Shown one piece after another: positions 5,801-46,743 of a stretch of 64,000 nucleotides of DNA. The position numbers and the translations under genes were made by a program. This DNA comes from a bacterium. Lineage in GTDB: Bacteria; BMS3Abin14. The DNA lies in the NCBI GenBank assembly GCA_020350725.1, contig CP070719.1, positions 308,999 to 372,998 on the forward strand, in the 5' to 3' direction. Numbering within the stretch: position 1 is the stretch's first letter; every line of letters begins with the position of its first letter. The notes beneath the pieces were generated by a model that saw only the letters and a program-made list of their open reading frames with translations, searched no databases and had not been told where the DNA came from.

Positions 5801-5984
5801 GGAAACCTCCAATGTTTTAATCCAGAGTCCGTAATTCGCTTTTTATAATTCACTGCCTACTTTCTCAATGTAATGCTCAAAATTCCGGATTCAAGGTAGA
5901 AGCTCCAAGGTCGCAGCTTGAATTTTAACCGATGTTGAAATCCAAGTTACGACCCCGGCCGGGGATAAATCACTCCGCGGATTC

Positions 5985-6118: not shown

Positions 6119-6757
6119 TTGACCAGAGATGAGAGCACCGGAATATCGATGAACACGGCGGGGGAGAAAAGGCGCAAGGCCATCCTCGACGCGGCGTGGT
6201 CCCTTTTCCTCGAGAAGGGGTACGCCGCGGTCAGCGTGGATGAGATCATCCGCGCCTCAGGCGGGTCAAAGTCCTCTCTGTATAAATACTTCGGAAGCAA
6301 GGAGGGTATTCTCAAGGAACTCATAGAATCGTTTGCCGAAGACATGCTGACGGAAGTAAAGCTCCCGTTTCCGCTGGACAAAACCCCCGAGGCCACGCTC
6401 AAAAGAATTGGTCTTCGCATCGGTGGCATGGCTCTGTCCCCGTTCGCGATCAATCAATACAGACTTGCCGTATCCAACGCCAATCCTTTCCCGGAAATTG
6501 CCAGAATGTGGTATGAATTCGGCCCCAAAAAGACCTTTGACGGCCTTGCGGAGTATATGGAGAAGGTAGCTGAAGCAGGAAAGCTGACGATTAAAAACCC
6601 GGAAAGGGCTGCCCTGTTTTTCTTCGGGATGATCATATTCAAGGACAACATGGCCATGTCCATCGGAGCTCCACCTCCAACGGAAGCGGAACTGGAGGAG
6701 ATCGTGGATGAGGCAGTGAGGGTTTTTCTCGCCGCCTACGGGAGGGAGGAAGTCTAA
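6119..6757 (+). CDS. TetR/AcrR-family transcriptional regulator
   Basis: N-terminal HTH KRRKAILDAAWSLFLEKGYAAVSVDEIIRASGGSKSSLYKYF. A TTG at 6119 with an AAGGAGGA RBS 6 nt upstream is the likely start; the track GTG at 6071 has no RBS. Confidence 0.8.
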   Translation: MTRDESTGISMNTAGEKRRKAILDAAWSLFLEKGYAAVSVDEIIRASGGSKSSLYKYFGSKEGILKELIESFAEDMLTEVKLPFPLDKTPEATLKRIGLRIGGMALSPFAINQYRLAVSNANPFPEIARMWYEFGPKKTFDGLAEYMEKVAEAGKLTIKNPERAALFFFGMIIFKDNMAMSIGAPPPTEAELEEIVDEAVRVFLAAYGREEV

Positions 6758-6918
6758 CCTCCATCCAGGATAACGCTCTCCGTATTGGAAGTTGGATCCA
6801 AACAGGGAGCTGGCAGCCCCGGCGAGGCGTCCAATATCTTTTTCTCCATTCAGCTGATCCTCCATTACCTGACACTGTCCACCTGCCGGTTATTTTCACG
6901 AAGATAAAAAATAGTGGT

Positions 6919-6972
6919 TGACAAAGACTGTACGGTACGGTACTTATCTTTTTAGTACTGTACCGTACAGTC
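6919..6972 (+). promoter_or_regulatory. promoter (-35 TTGACA) overlapped by a large inverted repeat GACTGTACGGTACGGTACT / AGTACTGTACCGTACAGTC (operator)
   Basis: Near-perfect 19-nt inverted repeat at 6927-6944 and 6954-6972 around a TATCTTTTT centre. It lies immediately downstream of TTGACA (6919-6924) and upstream of the cytochrome gene at 7113. Confidence 0.55.
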
Positions 6973-7112
6973 TTTAGCGATATGCGCCGGCAAATGCATT
7001 TGAACTGAGGAGGTGACGCTGAAAGCAGATAGATAAAAAGAGGATTCAGTCCCATTGAGGAAGCAGAAGGAAACGGATCAATGAACATGACGACTTGACT
7101 TGAGAGGTACAG

Positions 7113-7970
7113 ATGATGCGCACTTTAACCCTAGTAGTAATTGGAATACTGCTTACTGTTACACCGGCCTTGAACGGCACCGCAGCTCAGATCCAGCGAG
7201 TCCCGGATCAACAGGCCGCGACCGCCCTGCCCGCCTCCCTCGACTCGTTCTACCCGCCCAGCACCGACCGGCCGGTATATCTGATGGACATGCTGAAACT
7301 CGACACCCTCTTCTCGGGCATCGCGGCCGACGTTATGGAGGGGGACCACCAGGGTGCGAAGAGCACGTTCCGGCAGTTCAGATCCCAATATGTGGACGTC
7401 GGGAAAATGGTCCCGGAATGGAGAGAATACTACCCGATGGAACCGGTGGAAAAACTCGGAGCCGAGGTGTCCAGCGGAGAACCGGGAAGGATCATGGCCG
7501 CCATCAGTGAGGTGGGCAGGCTCTGTCACGAATGCCACTTCGTTTCAATGGTCCCCGTTCAGCAGAAGTACCACTGGGGGACTTTCACCGAGGTGAGAGT
7601 CGACGACCCGCTGAGCCGGGAGGAGGTGGACTTCTCACTGTTCAAGAAGTACCTTTCCACTAACCTGGCGGGAATCAGCATTAACCTTCGACAGGGTCAG
7701 ACGGAAAATGCCCGTCGGCAGTTTGCGGGATTCGAGGCGAGATTCCAGGCACTGAAAGGGTCCTGCCTGAATTGCCATGATCAGGAAAACAGGTACTTCG
7801 TCGATGGTGTGGTGGAGGACCTTTTGGGCAGGCTGGGCAGTGCCCTGGGGGACCAGAAGGTCAACACTGAAGCGGTGGAATCCCTGATCCAGGGTATCGG
7901 AAGGGAGAGCTGTTCCAAATGCCACCTCGTCCACGTGCCCGCTGCCTTAGCCGGAGTCAAGTATCAATGA
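7113..7970 (+). CDS. secreted triheme c-type cytochrome
   Basis: Signal peptide MMRTLTLVVIGILLTVTPALNGTAAQ. Three CXXCH motifs: CHECH, CLNCH, CSKCH. Confidence 0.7.
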   Translation: MMRTLTLVVIGILLTVTPALNGTAAQIQRVPDQQAATALPASLDSFYPPSTDRPVYLMDMLKLDTLFSGIAADVMEGDHQGAKSTFRQFRSQYVDVGKMVPEWREYYPMEPVEKLGAEVSSGEPGRIMAAISEVGRLCHECHFVSMVPVQQKYHWGTFTEVRVDDPLSREEVDFSLFKKYLSTNLAGISINLRQGQTENARRQFAGFEARFQALKGSCLNCHDQENRYFVDGVVEDLLGRLGSALGDQKVNTEAVESLIQGIGRESCSKCHLVHVPAALAGVKYQ

Positions 7971-8167
7971 CCTTCGGTCCCGTCCGATGCGGTAGAGGGA
8001 TCCTGGACCGGCCCTGATACCCTAAGACACCCTGAATACAGAAGCAGTCAACAAAGGGCCGTGGCCTGCGCGATGGGGGAAAGTAAGCCCCGAGGAAGCC
8101 GCAGGTCACGGCCCGGATCCATTGGACCAGTCTTGCGCCCGTGTTTTCCATCCAGTGATGGAGTGAA

Positions 8168-8242
8168 TGGTGCTCTGACCCCGTATACCGTGATGGTGCT
8201 CTGACCCCGTATACCCGCCGTATACCTGACCCCGTATACGTC
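8168..8242. repeat. tandem copies of GGTGCTCTGACCCCGTATACC (dispersed GTGCTCTGACCCCGT motif)
   Basis: ggtgctctgaccccgtatacc x2, then tgaccccgtatacg. The same 15-mer occurs at 401-415, 4626-4640 and 9980-9994, and as a TGCTCTGACCCCT variant at 9838-9870. Confidence 0.6.
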
Positions 8243-8283
8243 GCCACTCAGGGGAGGCTGTGAACTGGGACCTGGGTAATCGT

Positions 8284-8340
8284 TCCAGGCTCCCAGTTCC
8301 AGGTCCCAAATTGCAGGTTGCAGGTTTCCGGCTGATCTCA
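8284..8340. repeat. heptamer tandem array (x7) plus GGCTGATCTCAGG tail
   Basis: cgttcca ggctccc agttcca ggtccca aattgca ggttgca ggtttcc, then ggctgatctcagg. Confidence 0.6.
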
Positions 8341-8343
8341 GGA

Positions 8344-8556
8344 TTATACCGACAGGTCCTTTAACCCGTAGACTCTCGTGTGAGCTGCCCAGGCGGGGCA
8401 CCAGGTCCGGTGCCAGGCCATCAGCCTCCCGAAGGGAGAATTCGGTGTGCGGTTGGCGATGGGGCAGATCCGGCAGCTGTGGCAGACGCCCGCCAGGACC
8501 TTGGTGGTTATTCCAAACCGCCCCGCAGCCTTAGTGCTGTATTCCCTCGTCATCAT
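8344..8556 (-). CDS. small Cys/Trp-rich hypothetical protein (~70 aa), translationally coupled to the upstream gene
   Basis: ATGATGA overlap with the stop of the 8553-8975 gene, preceded by GGAGG. MMTREYSTKAAGRFGITTKVLAGVCHSCRICPIANR...WCPAW. Confidence 0.35.
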   Translation of the reverse strand: MMTREYSTKAAGRFGITTKVLAGVCHSCRICPIANRTPNSPFGRLMAWHRTWCPAWAAHTRVYGLKDLSV

Positions 8557-12400: not shown

Positions 12401-12631
12401 TCACCACCCTTCCGGTGCCTTGGGCGGATCCGGCCACCTTTCGGAATCGTACATGTTGTCCTCCCTTTCCCAGCACTCCTTGGAGCAGAAGTGGACCGGT
12501 TCGAAAACACAGCACCAACCGGAGAAGCTGGTGTCGTATGGGTCCCCCTCGATCTTATGACCGCACTGTTCACACCACAGGTCTACGGTTCCGGTGTTGT
12601 TCAGGGTTGATTCCTTGAAGTTGGTGGACAT
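12401..12631 (-). CDS. small Cys-rich zinc-ribbon-like protein
   Basis: GGAGGG RBS. Cys pairs: CEQCGH ... GWCCVFEPVHFCSKEC. Confidence 0.5.
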   Translation of the reverse strand: MSTNFKESTLNNTGTVDLWCEQCGHKIEGDPYDTSFSGWCCVFEPVHFCSKECWEREDNMYDSERWPDPPKAPEGW

Positions 12632-12902
12632 GAAAACCCTCCGATCAGAGAATTAGAATATGGTTGCCCATAAAATTGAGTAGTTTTGTTTATAATACAA
12701 AGGGCCCGGAAAAAGCAAGCAAAAATATCAGAGTTTGCTAATATTCCGATGCCATTTTCGGGGAGGATTCGGCACGAGGCCCTTAAAATAGAGGAGTTGA
12801 CAGGTGCCGCAATCGGGATAGAATGAGATCCTCTCCTATTATAAAAGGGGGCTCAGCCGGATCATCCTTCTGCCCCCCCATGGCAATACTGTTGGCGGCC
12901 GT

Positions 12903-17885: not shown

Positions 17886-18542
17886 CTAGGTTTCCTCCTG
17901 ACGGAGGGCTCCGTTGATGAACCGCGCCATGCTGCTCACCAGGACCCCCCTCAGGGACTGCAGATTAGCGTCCACGTCATCGTCCTCCGAGGCGATGACG
18001 GCGAACGAGTAGTAGCCGGAAAGAAAACCCGCCACCGCGCAGCCCATGCGGCGCAGAAGGGGTTTGTCGAGACGCTGTTTGACCACTGCGTCCACCAGTG
18101 CCTCGATGGACTCCAGGTATTCGATGAAGGGCAGCTCCAGGCCGGAATAGCCCTCCTTGAGCTTCAGGTCCGCACGGCCCTGATAGTAGAGGACAAACTC
18201 CTCCCATCGTGTGCTGAAGAAATCGATGTGAACCTGGATGATGGATTCCAGCAGGGACGTCAGGTCGTCAGCCCCGGTGCATCGCTTCTCCATGAGCGAG
18301 GTCAGCTCTTCAAGGACCTGCCGGATCAGGTCGGCGATGATCTCGTTCTTGTCGGAAAAGTGGTAGTAGAAGGTTCCCTTCCCCACGTCCGCCCGCTGGG
18401 TGATCTCGTCGATCGTGGTCAGATCGATCCCCTTCTCGGCGAACAGCTCCCTCGCCGCAATGAGGAGCCGGCGGCGGGTGGCACGGACCCTTCTGGTCTG
18501 GCGGGTGGCCTGTTCCCTGCGGACATTATCCACACCGGTCAT
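17886..18542 (-). CDS. TetR/AcrR-family transcriptional regulator
   Basis: HTH RRRLLIAARELFAEKGIDLTTIDEITQRADVGKGTFYYHF. GGGAGG RBS. Confidence 0.85.
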   Translation of the reverse strand: MTGVDNVRREQATRQTRRVRATRRRLLIAARELFAEKGIDLTTIDEITQRADVGKGTFYYHFSDKNEIIADLIRQVLEELTSLMEKRCTGADDLTSLLESIIQVHIDFFSTRWEEFVLYYQGRADLKLKEGYSGLELPFIEYLESIEALVDAVVKQRLDKPLLRRMGCAVAGFLSGYYSFAVIASEDDDVDANLQSLRGVLVSSMARFINGALRQEET

Positions 18543-18565
18543 GATGATTTTTTCCTCCCATTTTT

Positions 18566-18600
18566 TCGACTAGATAGTCAATTTTGACCATTTAGTCAAC
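18566..18600. promoter_or_regulatory. cluster of overlapping inverted repeats (GACTA-N2-TAGTC, GTCAA-N2-TTGAC, TTGAC-N6-GTCAA): TetR operator candidate
   Basis: cGACTAGATAGTCAATTTTGACCATTTAGTCAAc lies directly upstream of the tetR start at 18542. Confidence 0.55.
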
Positions 18601-18773
18601 AAAAAATTGGACCTTCCGGAAGTTTTTTTCCGACGGAAAAACAGGGGCAGTTAGAAACGAAATTTCCCCTTTAATTTAAACAGTTAGAATGGATCCGGTT
18701 TGTGTGATCCGATCGTCCGGCGGCCGGCCGGGTCCTTCCCTTGGGGCTGCCGGAGAAAAGGGGTGGTGCGGTC

Positions 18774-22771: not shown

Positions 22772-23299
22772 CTAGATTCTGGTCAGGAGGGTTTCGTATT
22801 GAAATTTCCTCCGGTTGAATACGTTTGACCCGTGGATCAGGGTTAATCTTGCCGTGATGCTGTCGAAGTCCTTGTGCTTTTCGGAAAACTCAATTGCGAA
22901 GGGGAGAGTGATATCCTCTATGGTCGCGTGAGGGCCGATGTTCAAAGAACCGTCTGCCCGATCATACAGGGAAGACGGCTGAGTCTGAAGGGATATTTGG
23001 TCCCCTGTTTCCAACCTGATATGATCTAAGGACGCTGGGACGATATTTGCCGTCTTCAGATCAAATTCGTCAATCTCAATTTCGTATCCCCGTATCGAGG
23101 CGTCCGAAAGAGGTTCAGTCTGGATGCTGAACCGGAAGACCAACCAGGTCCTCAGGTACTTTTTCTCCTTCTTCTTAACCCACAGCCTGTTTTTGATCTG
23201 ATGCCCGAAGGCCGGCCGGGACCCGCCGTTTGAAGGGAGAAAATGGAGTTTCGGTTTCCTGAAAACGGCCCGGAGGGGATGGAAATAAGCACGTGCCAT
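22772..23299 (-). CDS. hypothetical protein in a low-GC islet
   Basis: ORF with markedly lower GC (~50%) than its neighbours (~62%). No recognisable motif. An AT-rich promoter region lies upstream (23340-23480). Confidence 0.4.
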   Translation of the reverse strand: MARAYFHPLRAVFRKPKLHFLPSNGGSRPAFGHQIKNRLWVKKKEKKYLRTWLVFRFSIQTEPLSDASIRGYEIEIDEFDLKTANIVPASLDHIRLETGDQISLQTQPSSLYDRADGSLNIGPHATIEDITLPFAIEFSEKHKDFDSITARLTLIHGSNVFNRRKFQYETLLTRI

Positions 23300-23906
23300 A
23301 GGACATCTCCCTGATCCCCTCCCAATGGAATTCAAGGCTAGAAGAATAAAGTCAAAAAATAAACAGGCACCTTACTCAACTAAAATGCTAGTATATATTT
23401 GGGCAGTTGTCAAGTTAAATGTTTACCATAGCAATCAGGTAATTAATCGGTAAGCTTTCGCAATTTCACCTTAAAGTGGGGTATTTTGTCCCTCCTGTAA
23501 CAGGCCGGGTTCCCAATGACCGCCGGCCCGTTTGCAAGCGAACGGGCCGGCAAGGACGAAAAAGGTCATGAGTCGAATTGGGGCGGGAGAATCCGTGACG
23601 GAGCGGAAGTCGAGCCCGAATCCCTTTCCCCGGGAGTCAATGCCTATCAATGATTTAAACCTTATATCAAATCCGGGTGTCTACAGTAGTAAGGGATGGG
23701 GTGCAGGACCATGATTGCCTGCCGGTCATCGAGTACCTGTCCGGCAGGGTGTTGGAGAGGAGGTGATCGATCCCCCAGAATGTGTTCTTCAGGTCTCTGC
23801 CCGCCGGTTGGATTCCGGGGAGCAGTTGACCGACTGTATTGTGCTCTTCGGAAAGCGACACAGTCCGAAAGCGAGGAGCTTGCAGCGAAAGCTGAGGAGG
23901 AAGAAG

Positions 23907-25620: not shown

Positions 25621-26616
25621 CTACGTCCCGCCCTCGGAGCCCATCTCCGTGCTCAGAAATGTGGCCAGGTTGACGTCGCTGTTGATGATGCCCAGTTTGC
25701 GTCTGACCCGCTCCCGATGCCTGTTGATGGTGGCCGGGGAGACCCCCCGCAGTTCGGCGATCTCCTTGGTTCTCAGGCCGTTCTTGATCATTGTGCAGAT
25801 CTGGATCTCGGTGGGGGTCAGGGAATGGAAGGTTCCCGACAGACGGCTGACGAAGGGTGATGTGATCTCCTCGAGGTTGTCCCGGAGGAGCTCCACATAC
25901 TTCCTCTGAGGTCTGCCCACGGTCATGTAGAGTTCGTGGAGAATGGGCATGAGCACCTTCTCCACGTTGTCCCGGATGTCACGGTAGATCTCCCTTTTCT
26001 CCTCCTCGATCCTGGCCATGAGGGTCCGCAGGGCCGTATTGGTCTCCTGGAGAGCTTGACGTTCGACCTTGAGCTGCTGATTCATCTCCTGGAGTTCCCG
26101 TTCGGCGTTGATGCGCATGGCGATGGCGCCGATCCGTTCGGCCACCGCGTCGAGCAGCACCCTCTCCTCGTGAAGAAAGGGTCCCTCGTAGGCCGCCGGC
26201 TTCTCCTCGAGGTAGCAGACGGTCACTTCTCCCACCGGTTCCCCGTAGAGATGGATAGGGGATGACTGATGCCAGGCGGTCAGACGGAAACCGGGACTCC
26301 AATACACCCTGTCGAGGAAGGTGATGCGGGCACAGGTGATATCGGGGTACTGCCAGGAGGGCGGGATAATGGTGACCACCACTTCCAGGACATCCTCGAT
26401 AGGGCCGTCGCCGGCTTCGGCCAACTGAGCGATGGCGTAGAGACAGTTCAGTTCCTTGATCCGCTCCTGGAGGGCCCACACCACCCGTGCCGGATCCCTC
26501 TCCTCGCTCGGGGTCAGTCTCCATCTGAAGGGAACGGACGGCTTGACCGTGTTATCGATCTCGGGAAGATCGGCCGGGTCCATGTGCGGCGGTTTCCGTG
26601 GCATGAGGACCTCCAT
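25621..26616 (-). CDS. LuxR-family transcriptional regulator with N-terminal sensory domain
   Basis: C-terminal LuxR HTH LTPTEIQICTMIKNGLRTKEIAELRGVSPATINRHRERVRRKLG. N-terminal domain of ~230 aa with a coiled-coil segment. Confidence 0.75.
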   Translation of the reverse strand: MEVLMPRKPPHMDPADLPEIDNTVKPSVPFRWRLTPSEERDPARVVWALQERIKELNCLYAIAQLAEAGDGPIEDVLEVVVTIIPPSWQYPDITCARITFLDRVYWSPGFRLTAWHQSSPIHLYGEPVGEVTVCYLEEKPAAYEGPFLHEERVLLDAVAERIGAIAMRINAERELQEMNQQLKVERQALQETNTALRTLMARIEEEKREIYRDIRDNVEKVLMPILHELYMTVGRPQRKYVELLRDNLEEITSPFVSRLSGTFHSLTPTEIQICTMIKNGLRTKEIAELRGVSPATINRHRERVRRKLGIINSDVNLATFLSTEMGSEGGT

Positions 26617-26772
26617 CCTTGCCTAATCGATGTAGGTATTTGATAGGCAATAACTTGGCACAAAAAATACCTACATTTTATAGGCACTCTATGTGCATTC
26701 AAACAGTATTTACCTGACAATCATTACCACATTACCCTTAGGGGCATCAACCGTCAATTTTCCGGACAGGAG

Positions 26773-27255
26773 GTGCATATGGCCGGGTCATTCGCTGCCA
26801 TTCTCGAGGGGCGCAGGAGTCAGCCCCATCAGCTGATCGAGGTTCTCCAGGACATCCAGGTGATGCACGGTTACATTTCCCGGGACGCTGTGGATCTCGT
26901 CTCCCGGGAACTGGGGGTGCCGATAATGGAGGTCTACCGCGTCGCGAACTTCTACAAGGCCTTCTTTCTTGAACCCAGGGGCAAGCATGTCGTCACCCTC
27001 TGCCGCGGGACGGCATGCCACGTCAGGGGGGCCAATCCCCTTCTCGAGCAGGCCCTCGGGCTCCTCGGTGTGGAGGACGGGGAGACGACCGAGGACGGCC
27101 TCTTCACCGTGGAGAGTGTGAACTGCATCGGAGCCTGCGCCCTCGCTCCGGTGGTCATCCTCGACGGGGTCTACTATCCCCACATGACACCCGGCAAGCT
27201 GCGGGCTCTTATCAGCGGGGTGAGGCGGAAAGAGGAGGGACCTGGACATGCCTAG
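26773..27255 (+). CDS. NuoE/HoxE-like [2Fe-2S] thioredoxin-like ferredoxin subunit
   Basis: CRGTACHVRG ... CIGACALAP motifs. GGAGG RBS. Confidence 0.8.
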   Translation: MHMAGSFAAILEGRRSQPHQLIEVLQDIQVMHGYISRDAVDLVSRELGVPIMEVYRVANFYKAFFLEPRGKHVVTLCRGTACHVRGANPLLEQALGLLGVEDGETTEDGLFTVESVNCIGACALAPVVILDGVYYPHMTPGKLRALISGVRRKEEGPGHA

Positions 27256-30080: not shown

Positions 30081-30165
30081 GCGAGAATGGCGGAACTGGC
30101 AGACGCGCTGGATTTAGGATCCAGTACCTAGCGGTGTGGGGGTTCGAATCCCCCTTCTCGCACCA
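30081..30165 (+). tRNA. tRNA-Leu (anticodon TAG)
   Basis: Acceptor gcgagaa/ttctcgc, anticodon stem ctgga/tccag with loop ttTAGga, long variable arm, T-loop GGTTCGAATCC, 3' ACCA. Confidence 0.85.
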
Positions 30166-30414: not shown

Positions 30415-30662
30415 GGCAGCGTCCCTGCCGGACTACGGGTGTAAAGTATAATAGGGATAAGGGCAAAGGGGACATCACAGCCCGTTTTCTTGACCATATT
30501 TTCTCTTTCTACTTTCGACGCTAACCTTTTCCCTCTGACATCTCTTGCTCAATGTGTCTTTTTTTTGTAGCATCAGCCACCCACACTGGGAGTTCAGGGT
30601 TCTGGAACCTGAAATCCGGAATTTGTAACGAAGTCCTAACCTTTACAGGGATACCATATTAA

Positions 30663-32051
30663 ATGAAGATCAACGTTGAGAAGACGAGTGAGGTCGAGAG
30701 AAAGTTGAACGTGGAGATACCCTGGGAGACGGTCAGGGAGGAGATCGACCGAAGCCTGACAAAGATCCGCAGGACAGCCACCCTCAAGGGCTTCCGCAAG
30801 GGCAAGGCGCCCCTTGATCTGGTCCGCAGGATCTATTCCGATGACGCCCGCCAGGAGGCGATCAACGCCCTCGTCATGCGGGCCACAAGGCAGGCCCTGG
30901 ACCAACACAACCTGGAGCCCTACGGCAATCCCTACCTGACGGACGTCAGATCTGAAGACAATGAGCCGATGGTCTTTGAGGCGATGGTGGAGCTGTCCCC
31001 GAGATTCGAGGTGTCCGATTATCGCGGCCTGGTCCTGGAAAGGCCTTTCAGGGAGGTCACGAGCGGGGACGTGGATGGTTTTCTCTTCACGCTGAGAGAG
31101 CGCAATGCAGAGGCTGTCCCGGTTGAGGATGCAAGAGCCCTGAGGGACGGGGACGTGGCCACCGTGCACTTCAAGGGGTCCAAGGGCGGCGAGGTTCTCC
31201 AGGGTATGGATATCGATGACTTCGAGATCCGGCTGGGCAGAGAGCAGCTCATCCCGGGTTTCGAGGAGCAGATCGTCGGGATGAAAGCCGGCGAGAAGAG
31301 GGAGTTCGATCTTCCCTTCCCTGAGGAATACCCCCAGGAAAACCTTGCCGGAGAGACCGTCCACTTCGAGGTACTTCTCAAAGAGGTCAAAGAGATGAAG
31401 ATCCCGGACCTCAACGATGATTTCGCGAGGACCATTGGGGAGTTCGAAACTCTGGAAGATCTGAGAAAAAACATTCAGGATGACATGGATGAGGCGGCCA
31501 ATACCGAAGCGGAGAAAGCCCTGCGGGCCAACCTCACCCGAAGCCTTTTGGACAGCAACGTCTTCGAAGTTCCTCCCTCTCTCGTCGATAAGGAGATACG
31601 CTACCTGACCCAGGAGTATGGCGAGAATCTCCTGCGGGGAGGGCTCTCCAATGAAAAGGTCAGGGAGCTGATAATGGCCAATGAGGCTGATATCAAGAGG
31701 GCGGCCGGGGAGCACGTGCGCCTGATGTACCTGGTGAACAGGATCGCCGAAAAGGAGGAGATCAAAGCCGAACAGAAGGAGATCCTGAGTGTTGTCGCAC
31801 AGGCTGCCCAGCAGATGGGACGGCCGGTGAACGAACTCATGGACCAGTACAGCGAGGACGGCACGGTTAACGAGATCGCCTTCAATATCATCAGGAACAA
31901 GGTTTTCGACACCATCCTGGAGAGCGCAACGGTCAGTGACGTGAGATTGAAGGAAGGGGATACGGGTAAGACCGAGAACAGGTCCCAGGCGAAGACCAGG
32001 ACAAAGACAAAGCCTAAAAAGAAGGCTGATGCTGACGCGGAGTCGCGGTGA
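30663..32051 (+). CDS. tig: trigger factor
   Basis: MKINVEKTSEVERKLNVEIP..., PPIase domain GFRKGKAP. Conserved position upstream of clpP-clpX. Confidence 0.9.
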   Translation: MKINVEKTSEVERKLNVEIPWETVREEIDRSLTKIRRTATLKGFRKGKAPLDLVRRIYSDDARQEAINALVMRATRQALDQHNLEPYGNPYLTDVRSEDNEPMVFEAMVELSPRFEVSDYRGLVLERPFREVTSGDVDGFLFTLRERNAEAVPVEDARALRDGDVATVHFKGSKGGEVLQGMDIDDFEIRLGREQLIPGFEEQIVGMKAGEKREFDLPFPEEYPQENLAGETVHFEVLLKEVKEMKIPDLNDDFARTIGEFETLEDLRKNIQDDMDEAANTEAEKALRANLTRSLLDSNVFEVPPSLVDKEIRYLTQEYGENLLRGGLSNEKVRELIMANEADIKRAAGEHVRLMYLVNRIAEKEEIKAEQKEILSVVAQAAQQMGRPVNELMDQYSEDGTVNEIAFNIIRNKVFDTILESATVSDVRLKEGDTGKTENRSQAKTRTKTKPKKKADADAESR

Positions 32052-36790: not shown

Positions 36791-36866
36791 GGGCGGTTAG
36801 CTCAGTTGGGAGAGCATCGGCCTTACAAGCCGGGGGTCACAAGTTCGAGCCTTGTACCGCCCACCA
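36791..36866 (+). tRNA. tRNA-Val (anticodon TAC)
   Basis: gggcggt/accgccc acceptor, D-loop tagctcagttgggagagc, anticodon loop ctTACaa, T-loop GGTTCGAGCC, 3' ACCA. Confidence 0.85.
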
Positions 36867-36906: not shown

Positions 36907-36983
<77 letters not shown>

Positions 36984-38359: not shown

Positions 38360-38608
38360 CTACTTCCCACGTATCCGATTGTACTTTTCCAGCAGCCCCC
38401 CTTCCGTCTCCTGACGATCGGGGTCCTGTCTGCAGACGTCCACCGGGCAGACCTCTGCGCACCGCGGTTCGGAGAAGGCCCCCACGCACTCCGAGCACAG
38501 GTCAGGGTCGATGACGTAGATCTCCTCGCCCTCCGTAATGGCATCGTTTGGGCATTCCGGTTCGCATGCTCCGCAGGCGATGCACTCGACGTCGATCTTC
38601 AGGGCCAC
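38360..38608 (-). CDS. 2x[4Fe-4S] ferredoxin
   Basis: [12 protein letters not shown] and [18 protein letters not shown] motifs. Confidence 0.8.
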
Positions 38609-38766
38609 GATCTTCTCCTTGAGGAAATTCCAGATCCCGGGTTGCCGGTTCCAAACAATAAATTCACAGCTAAGTACAGAATAAGTCTGCCTTGAGACGG
38701 TCAGAAGGTACCCTTCTCGGTCAGGTGAATGCTGATTTTATCACCATCACCTGATATATAAACACC

Positions 38767-39459
38767 ATGGTCGATATAGGAAAGAACCTTGACATTCTGA
38801 GACGGGGGATCGCCGCAGCGGCTGACCGGGCCGGGCGGGATCCGGGGGAGGTTCTCATTCTCGCCGTCAGCAAGACCATACCCCTCGAGGTGATCCGCGA
38901 GGCAGCTGAGGCGGGTCAGGTTCACTTCGGGGAGAACCGCGTTCAGGAAGCGAGGGATAAGATACCCCTGCTTCCTTCCGGCCTGACCTGGCACCTGGTC
39001 GGGCACCTGCAGAGCAACAAGGCCAAATACTGCCCGGATCTCTTCTCCTGGATCCACTCAATAGATTCGACGGCCCTCGCCCGGGAGGTAGCCAGACGGT
39101 ACCGGGAGAGTTCCGCTGTCTGCAGGGCCCTGATCCAGGTCAATGTGTCAGGGGAGGACGCCAAGTTCGGCTGCTCCCCCGACGAGACACCCGGCATCCT
39201 CTCGGTCCTCCTCGAGGAGGATGCGACTGAACCTGTGGGACTCATGACCATGCCGCCCTTCACGGACGATCCGGAGGATGCCCGACCCCATTTCAGGAGC
39301 TTGCGGGTCCTGAGGGACAGACTCGTCGGGGAGGGTTACCCCAAAGAGAACCTCAGGGAGCTGTCAATGGGCATGACCGGGGATTTTGAGGTCGCCGTCG
39401 AGGAGGGAGCAACCATCGTCAGGATCGGGACGGCCATCTTCGGACCGAGGGGACTTTGA
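38767..39459 (+). CDS. yggS: YggS-family pyridoxal phosphate homeostasis protein
   Basis: AVSKTIPLEVIREA (PLP-binding Lys), TIM-barrel racemase N-domain-like pattern. Confidence 0.8.
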   Translation: MVDIGKNLDILRRGIAAAADRAGRDPGEVLILAVSKTIPLEVIREAAEAGQVHFGENRVQEARDKIPLLPSGLTWHLVGHLQSNKAKYCPDLFSWIHSIDSTALAREVARRYRESSAVCRALIQVNVSGEDAKFGCSPDETPGILSVLLEEDATEPVGLMTMPPFTDDPEDARPHFRSLRVLRDRLVGEGYPKENLRELSMGMTGDFEVAVEEGATIVRIGTAIFGPRGL

Positions 39460-40071: not shown

Positions 40072-40890
40072 CTAGTCCTTACTTTTACCAAGCTCCCTCG
40101 AACGCTCCACGGCAGCCCTGACACCTGCCCTGACCGCATCCTCGAAACCCGCTTCGGCCATGGCTTTCAGGCCGGCCTCCGTGGTGCCGCCCGGCGAGGT
40201 CACCATACCGCGCAGCTCCCGGGGAGATATCTCCGTCTCCAGTATCATCTTCCCGGCACCGAGGATGGTCTGTCCGACCAGCTCAGCCGCAGCCTCTTCC
40301 GGGAGGCCGGCCGCAGTTCCCTCCCGAATGAGGACCTCGGCCAATCGGAACACGTAGGCGGGACCGCTGCCGGAAAGGCCGGTGACGGTGTCCAGGAGCG
40401 ATTCGGGGAGGACAAGGCAGGATCCTACGGAGTGAAAGATCTCCACCGCCCAGTGAGTCATTTCAGCGTTGACCCTGCTTCCCGGAACGACGACCGTGGC
40501 GCCGCATCCGATGAGAGCCGGTGTGTTGGGCATCGATCTTATGATGGGGGAGCGGGGAAGGATCTTCTCGAGGAAGGACAGGGTTGTTCCCGCGGCGATG
40601 GAGATGATCAGCTGCCTGGGTGCCGGAATCTTTCGGATCTCCGCGAGGACTTCCGGCAGGACCTGGGGTTTGGTGGCGAGGAAGATCGTTCCGCTGATCT
40701 TGACCGGGACCCGGTTGTCCTCGGTCACCCTGACACCGTAGGTCTTCGCCAGAAAGTCGCGGCGGTCGGCCCTGGGCTCGGAGATAGTGATGTTGAGGCC
40801 ATCGCAGATGCCCGCCCGGATGATCCCCCCGGCGAGGGCCTCGGCCATGTTTCCGCCTCCGATAAATCCGATTGTTTTTCGATAGCTCAT
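40072..40890 (-). CDS. proC: pyrroline-5-carboxylate reductase
   Basis: IGFIGGGNMAEAL Rossmann motif and a ProC C-terminal dimerisation domain. Confidence 0.9.
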   Translation of the reverse strand: MSYRKTIGFIGGGNMAEALAGGIIRAGICDGLNITISEPRADRRDFLAKTYGVRVTEDNRVPVKISGTIFLATKPQVLPEVLAEIRKIPAPRQLIISIAAGTTLSFLEKILPRSPIIRSMPNTPALIGCGATVVVPGSRVNAEMTHWAVEIFHSVGSCLVLPESLLDTVTGLSGSGPAYVFRLAEVLIREGTAAGLPEEAAAELVGQTILGAGKMILETEISPRELRGMVTSPGGTTEAGLKAMAEAGFEDAVRAGVRAAVERSRELGKSKD

Positions 40891-41055
40891 TGAGCACCGC
40901 CCTTTCCTCGCCGATCCCGGTCAGTTGAATATTACCTTTCACTGGAAAAGCTGTCCATCCCCGTGACGGAAGGTATGCAACTTATGGATGTTTGACATTT
41001 ATCGTTGGTAATTTTATATTTAGAGCCGATTCTTAAGGTAAAATCGGAGGTCTGT

Positions 41056-42096: not shown

Positions 42097-42375
42097 ATGG
42101 GCCGGACGGATTCCAGGGCGCGGATCACAGTGAGGGTAAGGCCGCGTTCGTCCAGGGAGGCTGTGGAGGGATGGCAGGAGGGCATGCTTATGGTCCGCCT
42201 CACCAGCCCTCCCGTTGAGGGAGCAGCCAACAGCGCCCTGGTGAAACTCCTGGCGAAGAGGCTGGGCATTGCCACACGAAGGGTGAAGATCGTGGGGGGC
42301 GAACGATCGAAGACAAAGATCATCGAGGTTGAAGGCCTCACTCTTGACGAGGTCTCCAGGGAGCTGAATTGCTAG
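42097..42375 (+). CDS. DUF167 (YggU) family protein
   Basis: VRVRPRSSREAVEG...RLTSPPVEGAANSALVKLLAKRLGI matches the YggU pattern. Confidence 0.7.
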   Translation: MGRTDSRARITVRVRPRSSREAVEGWQEGMLMVRLTSPPVEGAANSALVKLLAKRLGIATRRVKIVGGERSKTKIIEVEGLTLDEVSRELNC

Positions 42376-43364
42376 GCCCCGGTCCCCTAAGAATCGCCGC
42401 CTTCCTGTTTCTCCTCCTGGCAATTTTCAATCCGACCGCGGCCGATCACCTCCTCGATCGGGCGGAATGGGAGGTCCTGGCCGATTTTCCCCTGGAGGTC
42501 AGGTTTCGGCACGAGCACAGGACGCTGGCCGAGGACATTCTTGGCCGGTCCAGGGTGTTCCTCGACAGGGTTTCCAACTTTCTGGGGATCCCTGTAGGGG
42601 GTCCCTACACTATCCTCATTGCCGGCAGCAGGGATGAGTTCGTGGAACTTCAGCCGGAGGCGTCCTCCGTCCCCGAGTGGGCCGGCGCTCTCACATATCC
42701 GCAGTTCGGAGTCGTCATCCTCATGACTCCAGGCGCCATGGATATTGACCCTCAGGATTTCTGGTCCCTGCTCGAGCATGAAATGGTTCACCTGGTTATG
42801 GGAGAGCAGGAGAACATCCGTCAGGCCCGGTTTCCGCGCTGGCTCAGCGAGGGGATCGCGACATATGCCTCCGGGGAGATGAGGCTGTCCCGTCTGCTTC
42901 ACCTTTCCTGGGCTCAAGTGACAAGCAGAACCATACCCTTTCGGGATCTCCTCACGGATTTCCCAAAGGATCCCGGCGAGGCCGAGGTGGCCTACGCTCA
43001 GAGCTATCTCTTCGTCCAGTATCTCGTCCGCAAATACGGTGAGGGAGCTGTTGCCACGCTGGTGGAATCGGTTCTCGAGCAGGGGGACATGGCACGGGCC
43101 GTGAATAGGTCTTTTGATGTTTCCATGGGCGAACTTCTGGACGGTTTCGACCAGTACGCCCGGGTGAAGGCGACCTGGATACCTGTGATCACCAGCTCCG
43201 CGGTCCTGTGGGGCGCTATCACCCTCCTCTTCCTCTACACTTACGCCTGGAAGAAGATGGTGGGCTATCGACGAATGAGGTACTGGGATGAGGAGGAGTC
43301 TCAGAGCAATGCCCTTTCCAACGGACAACTTAAAGAAGGTGAGGAACCGCCGACCGTTCACTAG
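42369..43364 (+). CDS. membrane-anchored HExxH zinc metallopeptidase-like protein
   Basis: N-terminal signal/TM, HEMVHL motif, C-terminal TM helix (VITSSAVLWGAITLLFLYTYAW). TTG start overlapping the upstream stop. Confidence 0.5.
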   Translation: MLGPGPLRIAAFLFLLLAIFNPTAADHLLDRAEWEVLADFPLEVRFRHEHRTLAEDILGRSRVFLDRVSNFLGIPVGGPYTILIAGSRDEFVELQPEASSVPEWAGALTYPQFGVVILMTPGAMDIDPQDFWSLLEHEMVHLVMGEQENIRQARFPRWLSEGIATYASGEMRLSRLLHLSWAQVTSRTIPFRDLLTDFPKDPGEAEVAYAQSYLFVQYLVRKYGEGAVATLVESVLEQGDMARAVNRSFDVSMGELLDGFDQYARVKATWIPVITSSAVLWGAITLLFLYTYAWKKMVGYRRMRYWDEEESQSNALSNGQLKEGEEPPTVH

Positions 43365-44616
43365 GCTCGTCGCTCTGATCCTGGCTCCGCTGCTTGTCGT
43401 TGGCCCCACGGGGCCTTCCCTGGCGGAGACTTCGTTCCGGAAGGTGGCTGTCCTCGACCCACCTCCAAACCTTCCCCCCGCGCAGGTGGCCCTCTGGCAG
43501 ACGGCAATTGCCAAGGTCCGTTCGAATCCCAGGATCCTGTTGAAGGACGAGGAAACCGTTAGGGCGATCCTCGTTGAGTGGGTCGATAAAACGGCGGCGA
43601 AGGAGGCAGAGCTTCTCTCCGAGGCCATGTCCCTCCGGGGGGCTGTGCGTCTGCAGATAGACAGGGCATGGGATCATTATTATCGTTTCGATTTTCCTGC
43701 ATCCAGGCAGGCTCTCGCCGCTGCAGAGCCAGTGCTGGACGATCTCCCTTCCACGGACATCCAGGCCGGTCTCCTGTTCGAGATCCTTCTCCTTGACGGC
43801 ATGGTCCTGAGGGCCATGAGGGACCCGGACTACCGGCAGAGCTTTCAGAGAGCGGCGTCCCTGAAGCCCGGGGCCGTTCTCGAACCGGAGAGGTATTCCC
43901 CCGACGTCATCGGGGACTTCCAGGAGGCGAAGAGAACAGTTCAAGACGGGCCGAAGGCCACCGTCTCCGTGACCGTCCCGTCCCTGGGGGGGACGGTCCT
44001 GATCGACGGCCGCCGGGCGGGGGACGTGCCCCTCTCAGGGTTTGAGACCTTTCCGGGGGTTCACTTTGTGGAGGTGGTCCATGAGGGGTTCCGGTCCCCG
44101 GCCACGAGGATCGAGCTGGCGGACTGGCAGTCGGTGAACCTGTCCTTCGATCTGACCCCTAAGGGGCCCACGGATCCGCCCCAGGCTTTCTTTGCCCAGA
44201 GAGTCTGGGCAGGAGACAGCCGGTTCTTCCGGGAGCTGGCCCGCAGACTGAACGTTGATCTCGTGGTTCTGGGAAGCTGGGACGGCAGGGACATGAGGGT
44301 GTGGCTGATCGACGGGGAGGGAATGGTCAACACTGAGGGGATGCTCTGGTCCGGGGATTCGGATAAGGGCCGGGAAGACCTCCTCTCGGACATGCTTCGC
44401 CAACCGGAGGACGAATGGGCAAGGGACGAACCGGTCATGGGGATATCGGTCAACGTACCCGAAGCGCCGGAGCAGGAAGTGGAAACGGAGGATGACCGCC
44501 TGGAGGGCCGACGCAGGAAGTGGTACCTGATCCTCGGCGGCGCTCTGCTCCTCGCCGTGGCGGCAGGGGCGATGAAGGATGAGGGAGGGGGCACGAGGGT
44601 GGAGGTGACCTGGTGA
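43309..44616 (+). CDS. secreted hypothetical protein with C-terminal TM anchor
   Basis: Signal peptide, beta-rich middle (possible PEGA-like), C-terminal WYLILGGALLLAVAAGA helix. Start is uncertain (43288 or 43309). Confidence 0.45.
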   Translation: MPFPTDNLKKVRNRRPFTRLVALILAPLLVVGPTGPSLAETSFRKVAVLDPPPNLPPAQVALWQTAIAKVRSNPRILLKDEETVRAILVEWVDKTAAKEAELLSEAMSLRGAVRLQIDRAWDHYYRFDFPASRQALAAAEPVLDDLPSTDIQAGLLFEILLLDGMVLRAMRDPDYRQSFQRAASLKPGAVLEPERYSPDVIGDFQEAKRTVQDGPKATVSVTVPSLGGTVLIDGRRAGDVPLSGFETFPGVHFVEVVHEGFRSPATRIELADWQSVNLSFDLTPKGPTDPPQAFFAQRVWAGDSRFFRELARRLNVDLVVLGSWDGRDMRVWLIDGEGMVNTEGMLWSGDSDKGREDLLSDMLRQPEDEWARDEPVMGISVNVPEAPEQEVETEDDRLEGRRRKWYLILGGALLLAVAAGAMKDEGGGTRVEVTW

Positions 44617-46016
44617 TCTCCGGCATCCGGACCAGGTTTGTGTTTCTCTCCCTGGCCGCGGCGGTCTTTCTCTCCGCATGCGGTGGTGAAGAGGAGAAGG
44701 GGAGGCTGACCGTCGGTCTGAGCCTTCCCCCCGGTTGGCAGGACAGGCTAGACATGGGCGTCCTGTCAGCGCAGGGTTCGACGCCGTACATAGGCACGGT
44801 CAGGATCAGGATAACCTGCGGAGGGGTCGAAAGTTCGTGGGAGGCCCCCTGGGCCACGAGGAGCCTCTCTCTGGACGGTTTGGATCTTAAGGGAGGATGC
44901 GACATCCTGGCCCAGGCCGTCACCGCCGGAGCCGTCATCATGGAGCGGCAGCTGATCGACGTCCGGGTCGGGGATGGGGCGGACGTGCCGCTCGATATTC
45001 AGCTCGAGGAATCCGAGGGGTTCTCCGCGGCCGGAAGCCTGATAAATCCCAGACAGTACCACTCGGCGACGCCTCTCCCCGGTGGGGTCCTGATCGTCGG
45101 CGGCACCCTGGATACGGGCGCCATCGAGAGTATCTCCGCCACCGGCAGAGCATTGGCGGCTTCCGCCTACGGCTGTTCCCTTGTTACACCCAGGACCCGC
45201 CAGAGGGTCCTCCACGACGACGCCAACGGCCAGTTGTTTGTCTTCCTCGGCGGAATGGACGACAGCCAATATGAAATAATTTCTACTGATGATGGACAAT
45301 GCTATGGATATTCAATAGAAGGAAATAGAAAGAACTTCTTTCCGGCAATATATAAGCAATCAGTATTTTTGTTTGGTGGATACGATGTAATTAATGAGTG
45401 GATCATTAACACATTAGAGATTAATTCGAATTCTTTATCCGAAAATACGGTTTTTACCATGGGCATTCCGTCACCTAGACAAAATTTGCATTGTTTGGTT
45501 TCAGGTGTTTATCTGTCTTGTTTAGGTGGGATGGATGGTTCAAATTACCTCGCTGAAGTAAGTGTTATGGACTTAGAAAATGAAGTTAATAGAACGCAGC
45601 GTAGTTTATCTAAACCAAAAACCTCATTTGGAATGACGTCCTTGTCTGATGGGAGATTTTTACTAACTGGGGGTATAAATGGAAGTGGTTTCTTAAAAGA
45701 TGTTGAAATATTTGATCCAAATAATGGTCAAGTTATCGATTTTGGTGAAGCCTTGATATACCCAAGGACACGACATTCCGCAACTCTATTGTTAAATGAT
45801 ACAGTATTAGTTGTTGGTGGATTAGAATATACCGGTCCCTCTATATCAGCAGAGATCTTCGACCCCGCAACCGGCATCTCACGGGAGCTGCCTTGGCGGA
45901 TGCGGGTGCCGAGGGTAGGCCACACGGCCACCCTCCTTCCCGACGGAAGGGTCCTGATCGTCGGTGGGAATATGGGTGATAAAACCATCGAGGTGTTCAA
46001 TCCGAGGATAGACTGA
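44613..46016 (+). CDS. Kelch-repeat beta-propeller lipoprotein (mosaic composition)
   Basis: Lipobox LSACGG. Repeated GG-x-Y/F Kelch-like units (VGGTLDTG, LGGMDDS, FGGYD, LGGMDGS, TGGINGSG, VGGLEYTG, VGGNMGDK). An internal block at 45268-45855 is strongly AT-rich but in frame. Confidence 0.7.
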   Translation: MISGIRTRFVFLSLAAAVFLSACGGEEEKGRLTVGLSLPPGWQDRLDMGVLSAQGSTPYIGTVRIRITCGGVESSWEAPWATRSLSLDGLDLKGGCDILAQAVTAGAVIMERQLIDVRVGDGADVPLDIQLEESEGFSAAGSLINPRQYHSATPLPGGVLIVGGTLDTGAIESISATGRALAASAYGCSLVTPRTRQRVLHDDANGQLFVFLGGMDDSQYEIISTDDGQCYGYSIEGNRKNFFPAIYKQSVFLFGGYDVINEWIINTLEINSNSLSENTVFTMGIPSPRQNLHCLVSGVYLSCLGGMDGSNYLAEVSVMDLENEVNRTQRSLSKPKTSFGMTSLSDGRFLLTGGINGSGFLKDVEIFDPNNGQVIDFGEALIYPRTRHSATLLLNDTVLVVGGLEYTGPSISAEIFDPATGISRELPWRMRVPRVGHTATLLPDGRVLIVGGNMGDKTIEVFNPRID

Positions 46017-46040: not shown

Positions 46041-46067
46041 CAAAATAAAAACCGGCCACAGGCCGGT
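46041..46067 (-). terminator. hairpin ACCGGCC-aca-GGCCGGT with T-rich tract on the minus strand (bidirectional terminator candidate)
   Basis: Located between convergent genes ending at 46016 (+) and 46147 (-). Confidence 0.55.
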
Positions 46068-46146: not shown

Positions 46147-46743
46147 TCATCCCGGCGTGGACGCGCACCCGGTCGTTTTTCGGGTGTCGTCAGACGGTTC
46201 GGCTTCCTCTTCCTCCTCGGTCCTCCGAACCGTTCTCGAGTAGAGGATCTCGTCAACCTTGGCCGAGAACAGGCTCTCGTCACCGTCGTTGAACCCCTTC
46301 TTCCGGAAGAACTCATTTCCACGGCGATCGAAGATAATGATGGTGGGAATGTAATCGACACCGAGGTACTTGGGAATATCGCTGCTCGAGTCAATGAGGA
46401 TGTTGTCCAGCTGGAAATCGTAAAATTCCAGATACCTCTCGATCCTGGCCAGACCGTGACGGTCCACAAAGGCGGCCGAGACGCTTATGCTGTCCCTGTA
46501 CTTCGCCTTGAGAAGCTCCAGGGCCCTCAGTTCCTTGATGCAGGAGTAGCAGGTGGTCTCGGTGACGACCAGGAGGTTGGCCGGGGCAAGGTGCACCCTT
46601 TCGAACTCCACGCGCTCCCCGCTCAGATACTCCAGGACGGTAAAGTCAGGTTGGGTCTCGGGCCTGCCGAAGGACACCCCGATGGAAAGGGTGGAGAGGT
46701 AGAGCAGGATGATGAGAAGGGATATATTCCTGGCGATATTCAT
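46147..46743 (-). CDS. secreted thioredoxin-like (TlpA/redoxin family) protein
   Basis: Signal/TM MNIARNISLLIILLYLSTLSIGVSFG. CxxC-type motif TCYSC. Thioredoxin-fold order. Confidence 0.6.
   Translation of the reverse strand: MNIARNISLLIILLYLSTLSIGVSFGRPETQPDFTVLEYLSGERVEFERVHLAPANLLVVTETTCYSCIKELRALELLKAKYRDSISVSAAFVDRHGLARIERYLEFYDFQLDNILIDSSSDIPKYLGVDYIPTIIIFDRRGNEFFRKKGFNDGDESLFSAKVDEILYSRTVRRTEEEEEAEPSDDTRKTTGCASTPG

Follow-up and report, generated by a model that had tools for sequence, protein, structure and literature searches.

Within a 64,000-nucleotide stretch of a bacterial genome of the GTDB lineage BMS3Abin14 (assembly GCA_020350725.1, contig CP070719.1, positions 308,999 to 372,998, forward strand; hereafter the window), the gene for a predicted Kelch-repeat lipoprotein holds an AT-rich block that is an exchangeable allelic cassette. 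As comparison with a second allele and with orthologues shows, the central 187 codons are represented in the population by many deeply diverged, mutually exclusive alleles, with the N-terminal 222 and the C-terminal 58 codons as the homology arms for homologous recombination. We consider it probable that the cassettes are old, interchangeable alleles that are exchanged via these conserved flanks and kept by balancing selection. The gene and its parts are listed below, GC3 being the GC fraction at third codon positions.

44613..46016, plus strand: Kelch-repeat lipoprotein gene, 467 residues (UCF31177.1, locus tag JSV26_01780; open reading frame and exact database match)
44613..44681, plus strand: predicted signal peptide with lipobox L-S-A-C (read from the sequence; Cys23 invariant in the family)
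44700..45002, plus strand: family-specific N-terminal beta-sandwich domain, residues 30-130 (secondary structure of the model; high GC, conserved)
45018..45278, plus strand: N-terminal propeller part, repeats 1-2, residues 136-222, left recombination arm (conserved, high GC)
45279..45839, plus strand: AT-rich hypervariable allelic cassette, 187 codons, residues 223-409 (allele comparison; GC 0.34, GC3 0.24)
45840..46016, plus strand: C-terminal propeller part, end of repeat 6 and repeat 7, right recombination arm (conserved, high GC)

A composition break inside one reading frame

The initial annotation had described an abrupt in-frame drop in GC content within this gene, accompanied by a change in codon usage and by preservation of the reading frame and the Kelch repeats, and each of these observations holds on recomputation. 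In sliding windows, GC content is 0.62-0.70 up to about 45250, 0.33-0.37 for 45250-45850 and 0.62 thereafter; maximum-likelihood change points at 45268 and 45831 delimit segments of GC 0.66, 0.34 and 0.60, the composition recovering at about 45831-45855. The cassette stands at z = -7.2 relative to all other 564-nucleotide windows in the 64 kb (mean 0.590, standard deviation 0.034, minimum 0.463) and is the sole long low-GC stretch among them. GC at the first, second and third codon positions is 0.62, 0.52 and 0.77 in the flanks versus 0.41, 0.37 and 0.24 in the centre. Because GC3 falls from 0.77 to 0.24 with synonymous codons switching (those for Gly, Leu, Val, Ser, Thr and Arg all shift to A/T-ending forms), more than amino-acid composition has changed. 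The reading frame is unbroken from 44613 to 46016, and the AT-rich part by itself matches Kelch Pfam models above their gathering thresholds. The functional limits of the cassette, 45279-45839 (codons 223-409), were taken from the allele comparison described below and refine the GC change points.

Short patches with a GC content of 0.41-0.46 occur elsewhere in the window (5651-5950, 6851-7150, 12551-12850, 18501-18700, 23251-23550, 26601-26800, 30501-30700, 38601-38800 and 40851-41050). They fall in gaps between long open reading frames and are probably intergenic spacers, and they never come near the cassette (0.34) in depth or length.

Cassette types on shared backgrounds

The family comprises about two dozen full-length orthologues of 450-478 residues that are 38-55% identical; a census with a profile of the N-terminal domain returned 14 proteins, mostly N-terminal fragments of 121-308 residues, and missed known full-length members, so its family size is a lower bound. 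In the protein alignment, amino-acid identity averaged over pairs amounts to 59% for the N flank and 76% for the C flank, the most conserved region of the family, against 39% for the centre. Clustering at 60% identity divides the centres of 27 sequences into 13 cassette types, a minimum for the family. How little the centre follows its flanks is apparent from pairs of family members, here given with their amino-acid identities:

P0008 and P0015: flank 98%, centre 35%
P0017 and P0023: flank 99%, centre 40%
P0009 and P0021: flank 99%, centre 35%
P0003 and P0004: flank 93%, centre 48%
P0007 and P0008, same type: flank 93%, centre 93%
P0007 and P0011, same type: flank 82%, centre 83%

Types A, B and C recur on several flank lineages apiece, and all three occur within a single such lineage (P0011, P0020, P0022 and P0025).

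At the DNA level, pairs of orthologous loci are 97-100% identical up to gene nucleotides 660-690 and then lose all resemblance. One pair (L086 and L105) is 97.9% identical for 4.7 kb up to gene nucleotide ~664, unalignable up to ~1206, and then 99.0% identical for 1.27 kb; in two further pairs, identity breaks at ~690 and ~1173 (L095 and L104) or at ~660 and ~1221 (L106 and L107). The loss of identity and the GC switch coincide within 30 nucleotides. That no two pairs break at exactly the same nucleotides is what homologous recombination in the flanks would produce, unlike a site-specific mechanism. Taken together, these comparisons indicate that centre and flanks have different histories and that the central block is a swappable cassette. 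Discrete, deeply diverged alleles lie between conserved flanks, and within species different alleles sit on near-identical backgrounds with breakpoints in the flanks; on both counts the gene appears to belong to the class of polymorphism known from flagellin and O-antigen loci. The earlier proposal of a mosaic gene thus survives in part: an in-frame replacement by a homologous Kelch block through recombination is well supported, not as a one-off event but as a family-wide pattern with at least 13 equally AT-rich types. The suggestion that recombination took place between Kelch repeats did not hold up, exchange being instead between alleles via the conserved flanks.

A second allele in the source species

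A search among contigs for the exact Kelch protein gave no match, and orthologues and neighbouring genes served instead. The exact proteins of the neighbouring genes were found on several Logan assemblies of the SRR314442xx runs, which are at least independent assemblies, possibly of the very reads of the source metagenome-assembled genome (MAG). Two of these contigs follow the window at 99.9% identity up to 45280, L118 from 41302 and L120 from 42673, and diverge there; three others (L108, L112 and L113) are diverged before 45840 and 99.8-100% identical to the window from there onward. L118 and L108 share 181 identical nucleotides at their overlap and together yield a full second allele of 1404 nucleotides and 467 residues, exactly the length of the window gene. 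Its cassette is in frame, has 187 codons and a GC content of 0.35, and is 33.7% identical in amino acids to that of the window; outside the block 45279-45839, the two alleles differ by 2 single-nucleotide polymorphisms in the N flank and 0 in the C flank. This reconstruction indicates that the source species itself is polymorphic for the cassette, with two alleles. The window allele is represented among the same assemblies by L109 and L111, which match the window at 99.8-99.9% identity over the right junction and for a further 200-240 nucleotides of the AT-rich block.

The initial annotation had put forward a chimeric metagenomic assembly as the alternative, in which reads of a low-GC organism would have been joined into a high-GC gene. 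The source being a MAG and the exact Kelch protein being present on one contig only would suit this explanation. However, all seven complete orthologous genes for which DNA was obtained (7/7), from different assemblers, samples and archives (ENA, JGI and NCBI), have the same GC dip in the same place, with the left change point at residues 206-234 and the right one at residues 401-416 of the query, centres of GC 0.33-0.35 and GC3 0.23-0.24, and flanks of GC 0.55-0.65 and GC3 0.60-0.77. The junctions also recur in other assemblies of the same species: the right junction of the window in L109 and L111, and those of the second allele in L118 and L120 (left) and in L108, L112 and L113 (right). Frame, length (467 residues in both alleles) and invariant structural residues are all kept. 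Independent orthologues and reproduced junctions together refute a chimera, to which we give next to no credence. For the left junction of the window allele, no independent contig of that allele spans the position; this junction rests on frame, length, the family pattern and the match of the second-allele contigs, which ends at the same place.

Several contigs end at the left junction (L089 (5875), L090 (5635), L091 (4188), L093 and L097 (4467)), and one, L115, ends at window position 45838, that is, at the right junction; stops of this kind are the usual consequence of strain-level variation. In the PVMK01 contigs L089, L090 and L096, the upstream flank is 99.9% identical up to the junction. 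L096 (3852-5238) had the appearance of a truncated allele, its Kelch gene being frameshifted in the high-GC sequence immediately ahead of the cassette, and was rejected because PcrA is also split in the same assembly (6240-8491), which points to a probable sequence error at low coverage and not to pseudogenes.

Selection within and between cassette types

Within type A, nucleotide identity is 83-87% in the cassette versus 80-85% in the flanks. The within-type ratio of nonsynonymous to synonymous divergence (dN/dS) is 0.14-0.18 in the cassette versus 0.11-0.17 in the flanks, and synonymous divergence (dS) amounts to 0.64 versus 0.62, 1.04 versus 0.94 and 1.10 versus 0.89 for cassette and flank. 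Because dS and dN/dS within types match those of the flanks, the cassette alleles are stable and functional, and purifying selection acts on every type. Where different types sit on near-identical backgrounds, dN in the centre is about 0.8 at a flank dS of 0.006-0.09, from which we infer that the types long predate their present carrier strains and have persisted next to each other.

The same figures bear on targeted hypermutation of the centre by a diversity-generating retroelement (DGR) or a deaminase-type mutator, which could also have driven the AT-richness. The region is indeed hypervariable and skewed in base composition. However, within a type the cassette evolves like its flanks, with the same dS and dN/dS, which rules out hypermutation and a DGR. 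The variants form discrete allele classes, not a cloud; the block is internal and 561 nucleotides long, whereas DGR targets vary in short regions at the C-terminus; and neither a copy of the cassette resembling a template repeat in the 64 kb, nor a repeat bracketing it, nor a reverse transcriptase in the Pfam lists of the neighbours at orthologous loci was found. We regard the chance of such a mechanism as negligible.

The cassette as part of a closed propeller

The Kelch protein begins with a lipoprotein-type signal, MISGIRTRFVFLSLAAAVFLSAC, which terminates in ...AAAVFLSAC at Cys23, a residue that is unchanged in every family member of the alignment. By its lipobox, the protein is a putative bacterial lipoprotein, lipidation itself being predicted. 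The AlphaFold2 model (predicted local distance difference test 86, predicted template modelling score 0.85) has a beta-sandwich at residues 30-130, with the conserved family motifs TPYIGT[IV]R and QA[LV]TAGQVIME, followed by a propeller at residues 136-467. Over the whole protein, the Pfam models Kelch_4 (80.7 bits, cut-off 21.6), Kelch_1 (56.2, cut-off 20.1) and Kelch_6 (55.9, cut-off 25.3) match, and seven GG motifs at residues 163, 212, 255, 305, 353, 402 and 451 mark units of ~48 residues. These Pfam matches, the tandem GG units and the closed fold of the model place the protein among the Kelch-repeat beta-propellers. The top fold matches in the PDB, found with Foldseek, are the Kelch domains of KLHL3, KLHL12, Keap1 and NS1-BP (E about 1e-15, template modelling score about 0.7 on the target, 16-22% sequence identity).

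Seen against this fold, the cassette junctions lie between residues 222 and 223, in repeat 2 and 9 residues past its GG, and between residues 409 and 410, in repeat 6 and 6 residues past its GG, and thus at roughly equivalent positions of the two repeats. The cassette spans about four repeat units, namely repeats 3-5 with parts of 2 and 6, its two ends being nearly in register, and the ring-closing repeats 1, 2 and 7 stay conserved. Invariant residues within the cassette are G256, W263, E277, C294, C303, G306, G353, G354, R385, H388, L399, G402 and G403. The lipobox cysteine and the two invariant cassette cysteines point to an extracytoplasmic location of the protein. Cys294 and Cys303 (window positions 45492-45494 and 45519-45521) stand inside an otherwise hypervariable segment; the exported thioredoxin-like protein that the convergent neighbour encodes has a C-Y-S-C motif and, in its C-terminal tail, the conserved sequence ...TTGCAST.... 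The two cysteines and this neighbour hint at disulfide formation in the propeller.

Exchange and maintenance of the cassettes

What, then, would keep so many propeller cassettes in circulation? In the explanation that we prefer, an exported, lipid-anchored protein that combines a beta-sandwich at the N-terminus with a Kelch propeller of seven repeats would present a recognition surface, and ordinary homologous recombination in the conserved arms swaps cassettes between strains and related lineages. Balancing selection, most likely negative frequency-dependent, would act on the exposed surface and keep the types. The most likely agents would be phages or other antagonists that use the protein as a docking site, with a change in ligand or partner specificity as the alternative. 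That the cassettes may differ in binding specificity, as the initial annotation had suggested, is plausible.

Several points weigh against this explanation. Strands are as variable as loops (entropy 1.81 versus 1.87); whole modules have diverged, not surface loops alone, which fits ancient, diverged modules and not the loop-focused pattern of ongoing diversifying selection. The search for silent copies covered only 64 kb of 2.78 Mb and ~10 kb on each side of the gene in the orthologues. Surface exposure, the ligand, the selective agent and with it the role of phages are all things that we infer. Finally, polarised singletons in the cassettes run 159 from AT to GC versus 76 from GC to AT, against 132 and 224 in the flanks; the excess of 'common to rare' changes in both compartments is also a known artefact of parsimony at such divergence, and we do not rely on these counts. 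If they were no artefact, the cassettes would be drifting toward GC and would have come from an AT-richer source.

The driver of the same cassette system could also be self/non-self cell recognition (homotypic, as in TraA) or a change in substrate or ligand. Polymorphic recognition receptors such as TraA of Myxococcus show discrete, long-lived specificity classes on conserved scaffolds, and the cassette types would resemble them in this respect; divergence of the whole module rather than of loops only would likewise fit class-specific recognition. However, no co-varying partner gene was found, the upstream genes being 98-99.9% identical between strains with different cassettes, and the four proteins of the locus match no known family of such systems. 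We regard this driver as unlikely. A different history altogether would be a single horizontal replacement, with a low-GC organism as the donor of the homologous block, the origin that the initial annotation had favoured. The abrupt in-frame switch in GC content and codon usage is what such an import would leave, and the lean of polarised cassette substitutions from AT to GC is what foreign AT-rich DNA would show while ameliorating. Yet AT-richness is equal in all orthologues and in all 13 types and independent of host GC content, same-type cassettes at a dS of 0.6-1.0 still have a GC3 of 0.23-0.24, and no uniformly low-GC family member was found. Nor did the searches lead to a donor lineage or a mobile carrier. 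An exhaustive HMMER search with the cassette alone returned no other whole-cassette relative and no donor, its matches being mostly giant multi-Kelch proteins aligned to the canonical C-terminal repeats only; the phage collection gave no relevant matches, and plasmids gave only generic Kelch proteins at 31-42% identity. A whole-protein profile scan of genome contigs yielded 80 unrelated Kelch loci (pattern PDGRVLxGG) and no orthologue, and an indexed protein search with the cassette gave one weak match and missed the query protein itself, so that it is uninformative. We consider a single import improbable.

Programmed intragenomic antigenic variation, in which silent cassettes are converted into an expression site as in pilE/pilS or vlsE, would account for near-identical strains that differ in the cassette alone and for junctions in short conserved segments, and about 2% of the source genome was inspected for silent copies. 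On the other hand, blastn and tblastn revealed no further copy of the two alleles in the 64-kb window (~2% of the 2.78-Mb source genome), no second cassette copy lies within about 10 kb of the gene at any orthologous locus, and no other protein of the 2.78-Mb source contig is among the relatives of the Kelch gene. Moreover, the cassette dS within a type equals the flank dS, which speaks for stable linkage and not for frequent switching. Such a programme is, in our estimation, very improbable. Site-specific machinery has left as little trace. No repeats or inverted repeats above chance bracket the cassette, promoter-like sites around it show no excess over chance, the breakpoints vary (nucleotides 660-690 and 1173-1221), and the Pfam lists of the neighbours at orthologous loci contain no recombinase, all of which differs from a shufflon or another site-specific inversion system. 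A polymorphic toxin of the Rhs or contact-dependent inhibition (CDI) kind does not match either, the block being internal and Kelch-like, the downstream gene a conserved thioredoxin-like one, and orphan copies absent from the searched loci. We therefore return to old cassette alleles exchanged through their flanks and kept by balancing selection as the explanation that best accommodates these observations.

AT-richness of the cassettes

In all cassettes for which DNA is available, GC content is 0.33-0.35 and GC3 0.23-0.24, whether the GC3 of the host flank is 0.60 or 0.77. Cassettes of the same type have diverged together with their flanks to a dS of 0.6-1.0 without a visible shift toward host GC. 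Because the AT-richness is uniform despite this divergence, a recent import that is still ameliorating is disfavoured, and a segment-specific compositional equilibrium or a shared pool is favoured. Our preferred guess draws on the hypothesis of GC-biased gene conversion in bacteria (PMC4450053): a segment that is split into non-recombining allele classes would escape GC-biased gene conversion and selection and would settle near the AT-biased mutational equilibrium. The polarised singletons given above, if no artefact, would speak against this guess, as they would place the equilibrium of the cassettes at a composition poorer in AT than the present one. An AT-rich reservoir, unsampled so far, may instead have supplied the cassettes. 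The low GC content of O-antigen specificity genes, 28-37% in a genome of 51-52% GC, is a comparable case whose cause is likewise open (PMC3715488).

We find it doubtful that the uniform AT-richness points to a reservoir or an exchange mechanism dedicated to the cassettes and is more than a by-product. A reservoir may consist of silent AT-rich Kelch cassettes elsewhere in the genome that are gene-converted into the site, and an exchange mechanism may take the form of an as yet unsampled AT-rich carrier that shuttles cassettes between lineages. In a milder form, the locus may be a clean experiment of nature, with a non-recombining, balanced segment that decays to mutational equilibrium (GC3 ~0.23) in a genome that biased gene conversion or selection holds at a GC3 of 0.6-0.8. 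If silent cassettes existed, part of a beta-propeller would be subject to a programmed variation of a new kind.

The operon and its neighbourhood

The Kelch gene is apparently the last of three tightly packed, overlapping genes that form an operon, with the following features around it:

42369..43364, plus strand: exported Peptidase_MA_2-type HExxH protein with a C-terminal membrane helix, first operon gene (open reading frame; PF13485 of the orthologues at the same position)
43309..44616, plus strand: PEGA-domain envelope protein, 435 residues, UCF31176.1, second operon gene (Pfam PEGA; the exact database protein starts at 43309)
46051..46067, plus strand: GC-rich hairpin and T-rich tail, candidate operon terminator between convergent genes (consensus match alone)
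46147..46743, minus strand: exported thioredoxin-like protein with CxxC (C-Y-S-C), UCF31178.1 (weak matches to Pfam Thioredoxin_2 and NCBIfam ResA)

The first gene encodes a signal peptide and has a weak flagellinolysin-like NCBIfam match (E 1e-10) below the cut-off, and its reading frame overlaps the start of the PEGA gene. The PEGA protein also bears a C-terminal membrane helix; the stop of its gene overlaps the Kelch start as GTGA (44613-44616), and the gene is syntenic at all orthologous loci. The operon proteins have no match to an NCBIfam family at the cut-off, and none of the four locus proteins has a match among the anti-phage defence models of PADLOC. At the orthologous loci, the gene order is YggS, P5C reductase, YggT, DivIVA, DUF167-like, Peptidase_MA_2, PEGA, Kelch, thioredoxin-like (opposite strand) and PcrA/UvrD; the operon adjoins the cell-division cluster YggS-YggT-DivIVA.

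The thioredoxin-like gene adjoins the Kelch gene at most orthologous loci, and its exact protein was found on 11 contigs; its link to the cassette system is uncertain. In the P0013 lineage, a CLC-channel/PTS_EIIA gene on the plus strand takes its place (L083 11762-14164, L084 8523-10925), and in the window and in L086 the CLC-type gene sits beyond PcrA. Because the position of this gene varies between lineages, the right-hand neighbourhood is less fixed than the left. Elsewhere in the window, Rfam matches at gathering level are limited to tRNA-Leu(tag) at 30081-30165, tRNA-Val(tac) at 36791-36866 and tRNA-Asp(gtc) at 36907-36983, and the reading frames between tRNA-Leu and the Val/Asp pair resemble trigger factor, ClpP, ClpX and Lon, judged by position.

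Relation to known systems

We would like to place the cassette into the context of known mosaic loci. In flagellins of the fliC type, conserved gene ends serve as recombination arms, and the central region exists in deeply diverged allele classes that are re-assorted among strains. The Kelch gene shares with these mosaic alleles the conserved arms around re-assorted, diverged central alleles. However, the replaced part is not an inserted surface domain, as in flagellin, but about four of the seven repeats of one closed propeller; as part of a single ring, every allele must close with the same repeats 1, 2 and 7. The GC contrast is also extreme (GC3 0.24 versus 0.60-0.77) and uniform over alleles, and family, operon and host lineage are uncharacterised. 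In the O-antigen loci of Salmonella and E. coli, the polymorphic genes (wzx, wzy and glycosyltransferases) lie between conserved flanks, with GC falling toward the specificity genes (PMC3715488). The likeness lies in low-GC, specificity-type DNA that is exchanged by recombination in conserved flanks, and the difference in scale and product: O-antigen loci are multi-gene enzyme clusters, whereas here 561 nucleotides inside one reading frame encode part of a binding-type fold.

An abrupt change of composition inside a reading frame, at the border of conserved core and variable module, is known from Rhs proteins (PMC2935791), and the intragenic break and the recombining variable module are likenesses to Rhs and CDI polymorphic toxins in general. 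Rhs variation, however, is C-terminal and concerns toxins with cognate immunity genes and orphan tips downstream, whereas the module described here is internal and structural, with no toxin or immunity gene and no orphan copies found within the searched loci. Among folds, the best matches are the six-bladed Kelch domains of KLHL3, KLHL12, Keap1 and NS1-BP, and seven-bladed propellers of the galactose-oxidase type stand beside Kelch domains among the closest; unlike those Kelch domains, the present protein has seven repeats, a lipoprotein signal and an extra N-terminal beta-sandwich, and it lacks a catalytic or BTB/BACK context. The literature searches turned up no account of this cassette system. 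It works like the mosaic flagellin-type and O-antigen loci and differs from them in the partial-propeller swap, the extreme and uniform GC contrast and the uncharacterised operon of an uncultured lineage.

On a practical level, intragenic allelic islands of this kind fragment metagenome assemblies, truncate gene calls and can pass for chimeras. The 50-point contrast in GC3, independent of host GC, bears on the question of why O-antigen, capsule and flagellin loci are AT-rich, for which foreign origin, lack of GC-biased gene conversion and selection are the candidates; the question is testable here, cassette and flanks being parts of the same gene in the same genome and expressed at the same level. 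With its natural variants, the family also lends itself to testing how large a part of a beta-propeller can be exchanged without loss of the fold. The exchange of four of seven propeller repeats as a unit would be an unusually clean case of long-term balanced polymorphism in one domain, and it marks an uncharacterised three-gene envelope operon as a probable interaction hot spot of these bacteria.

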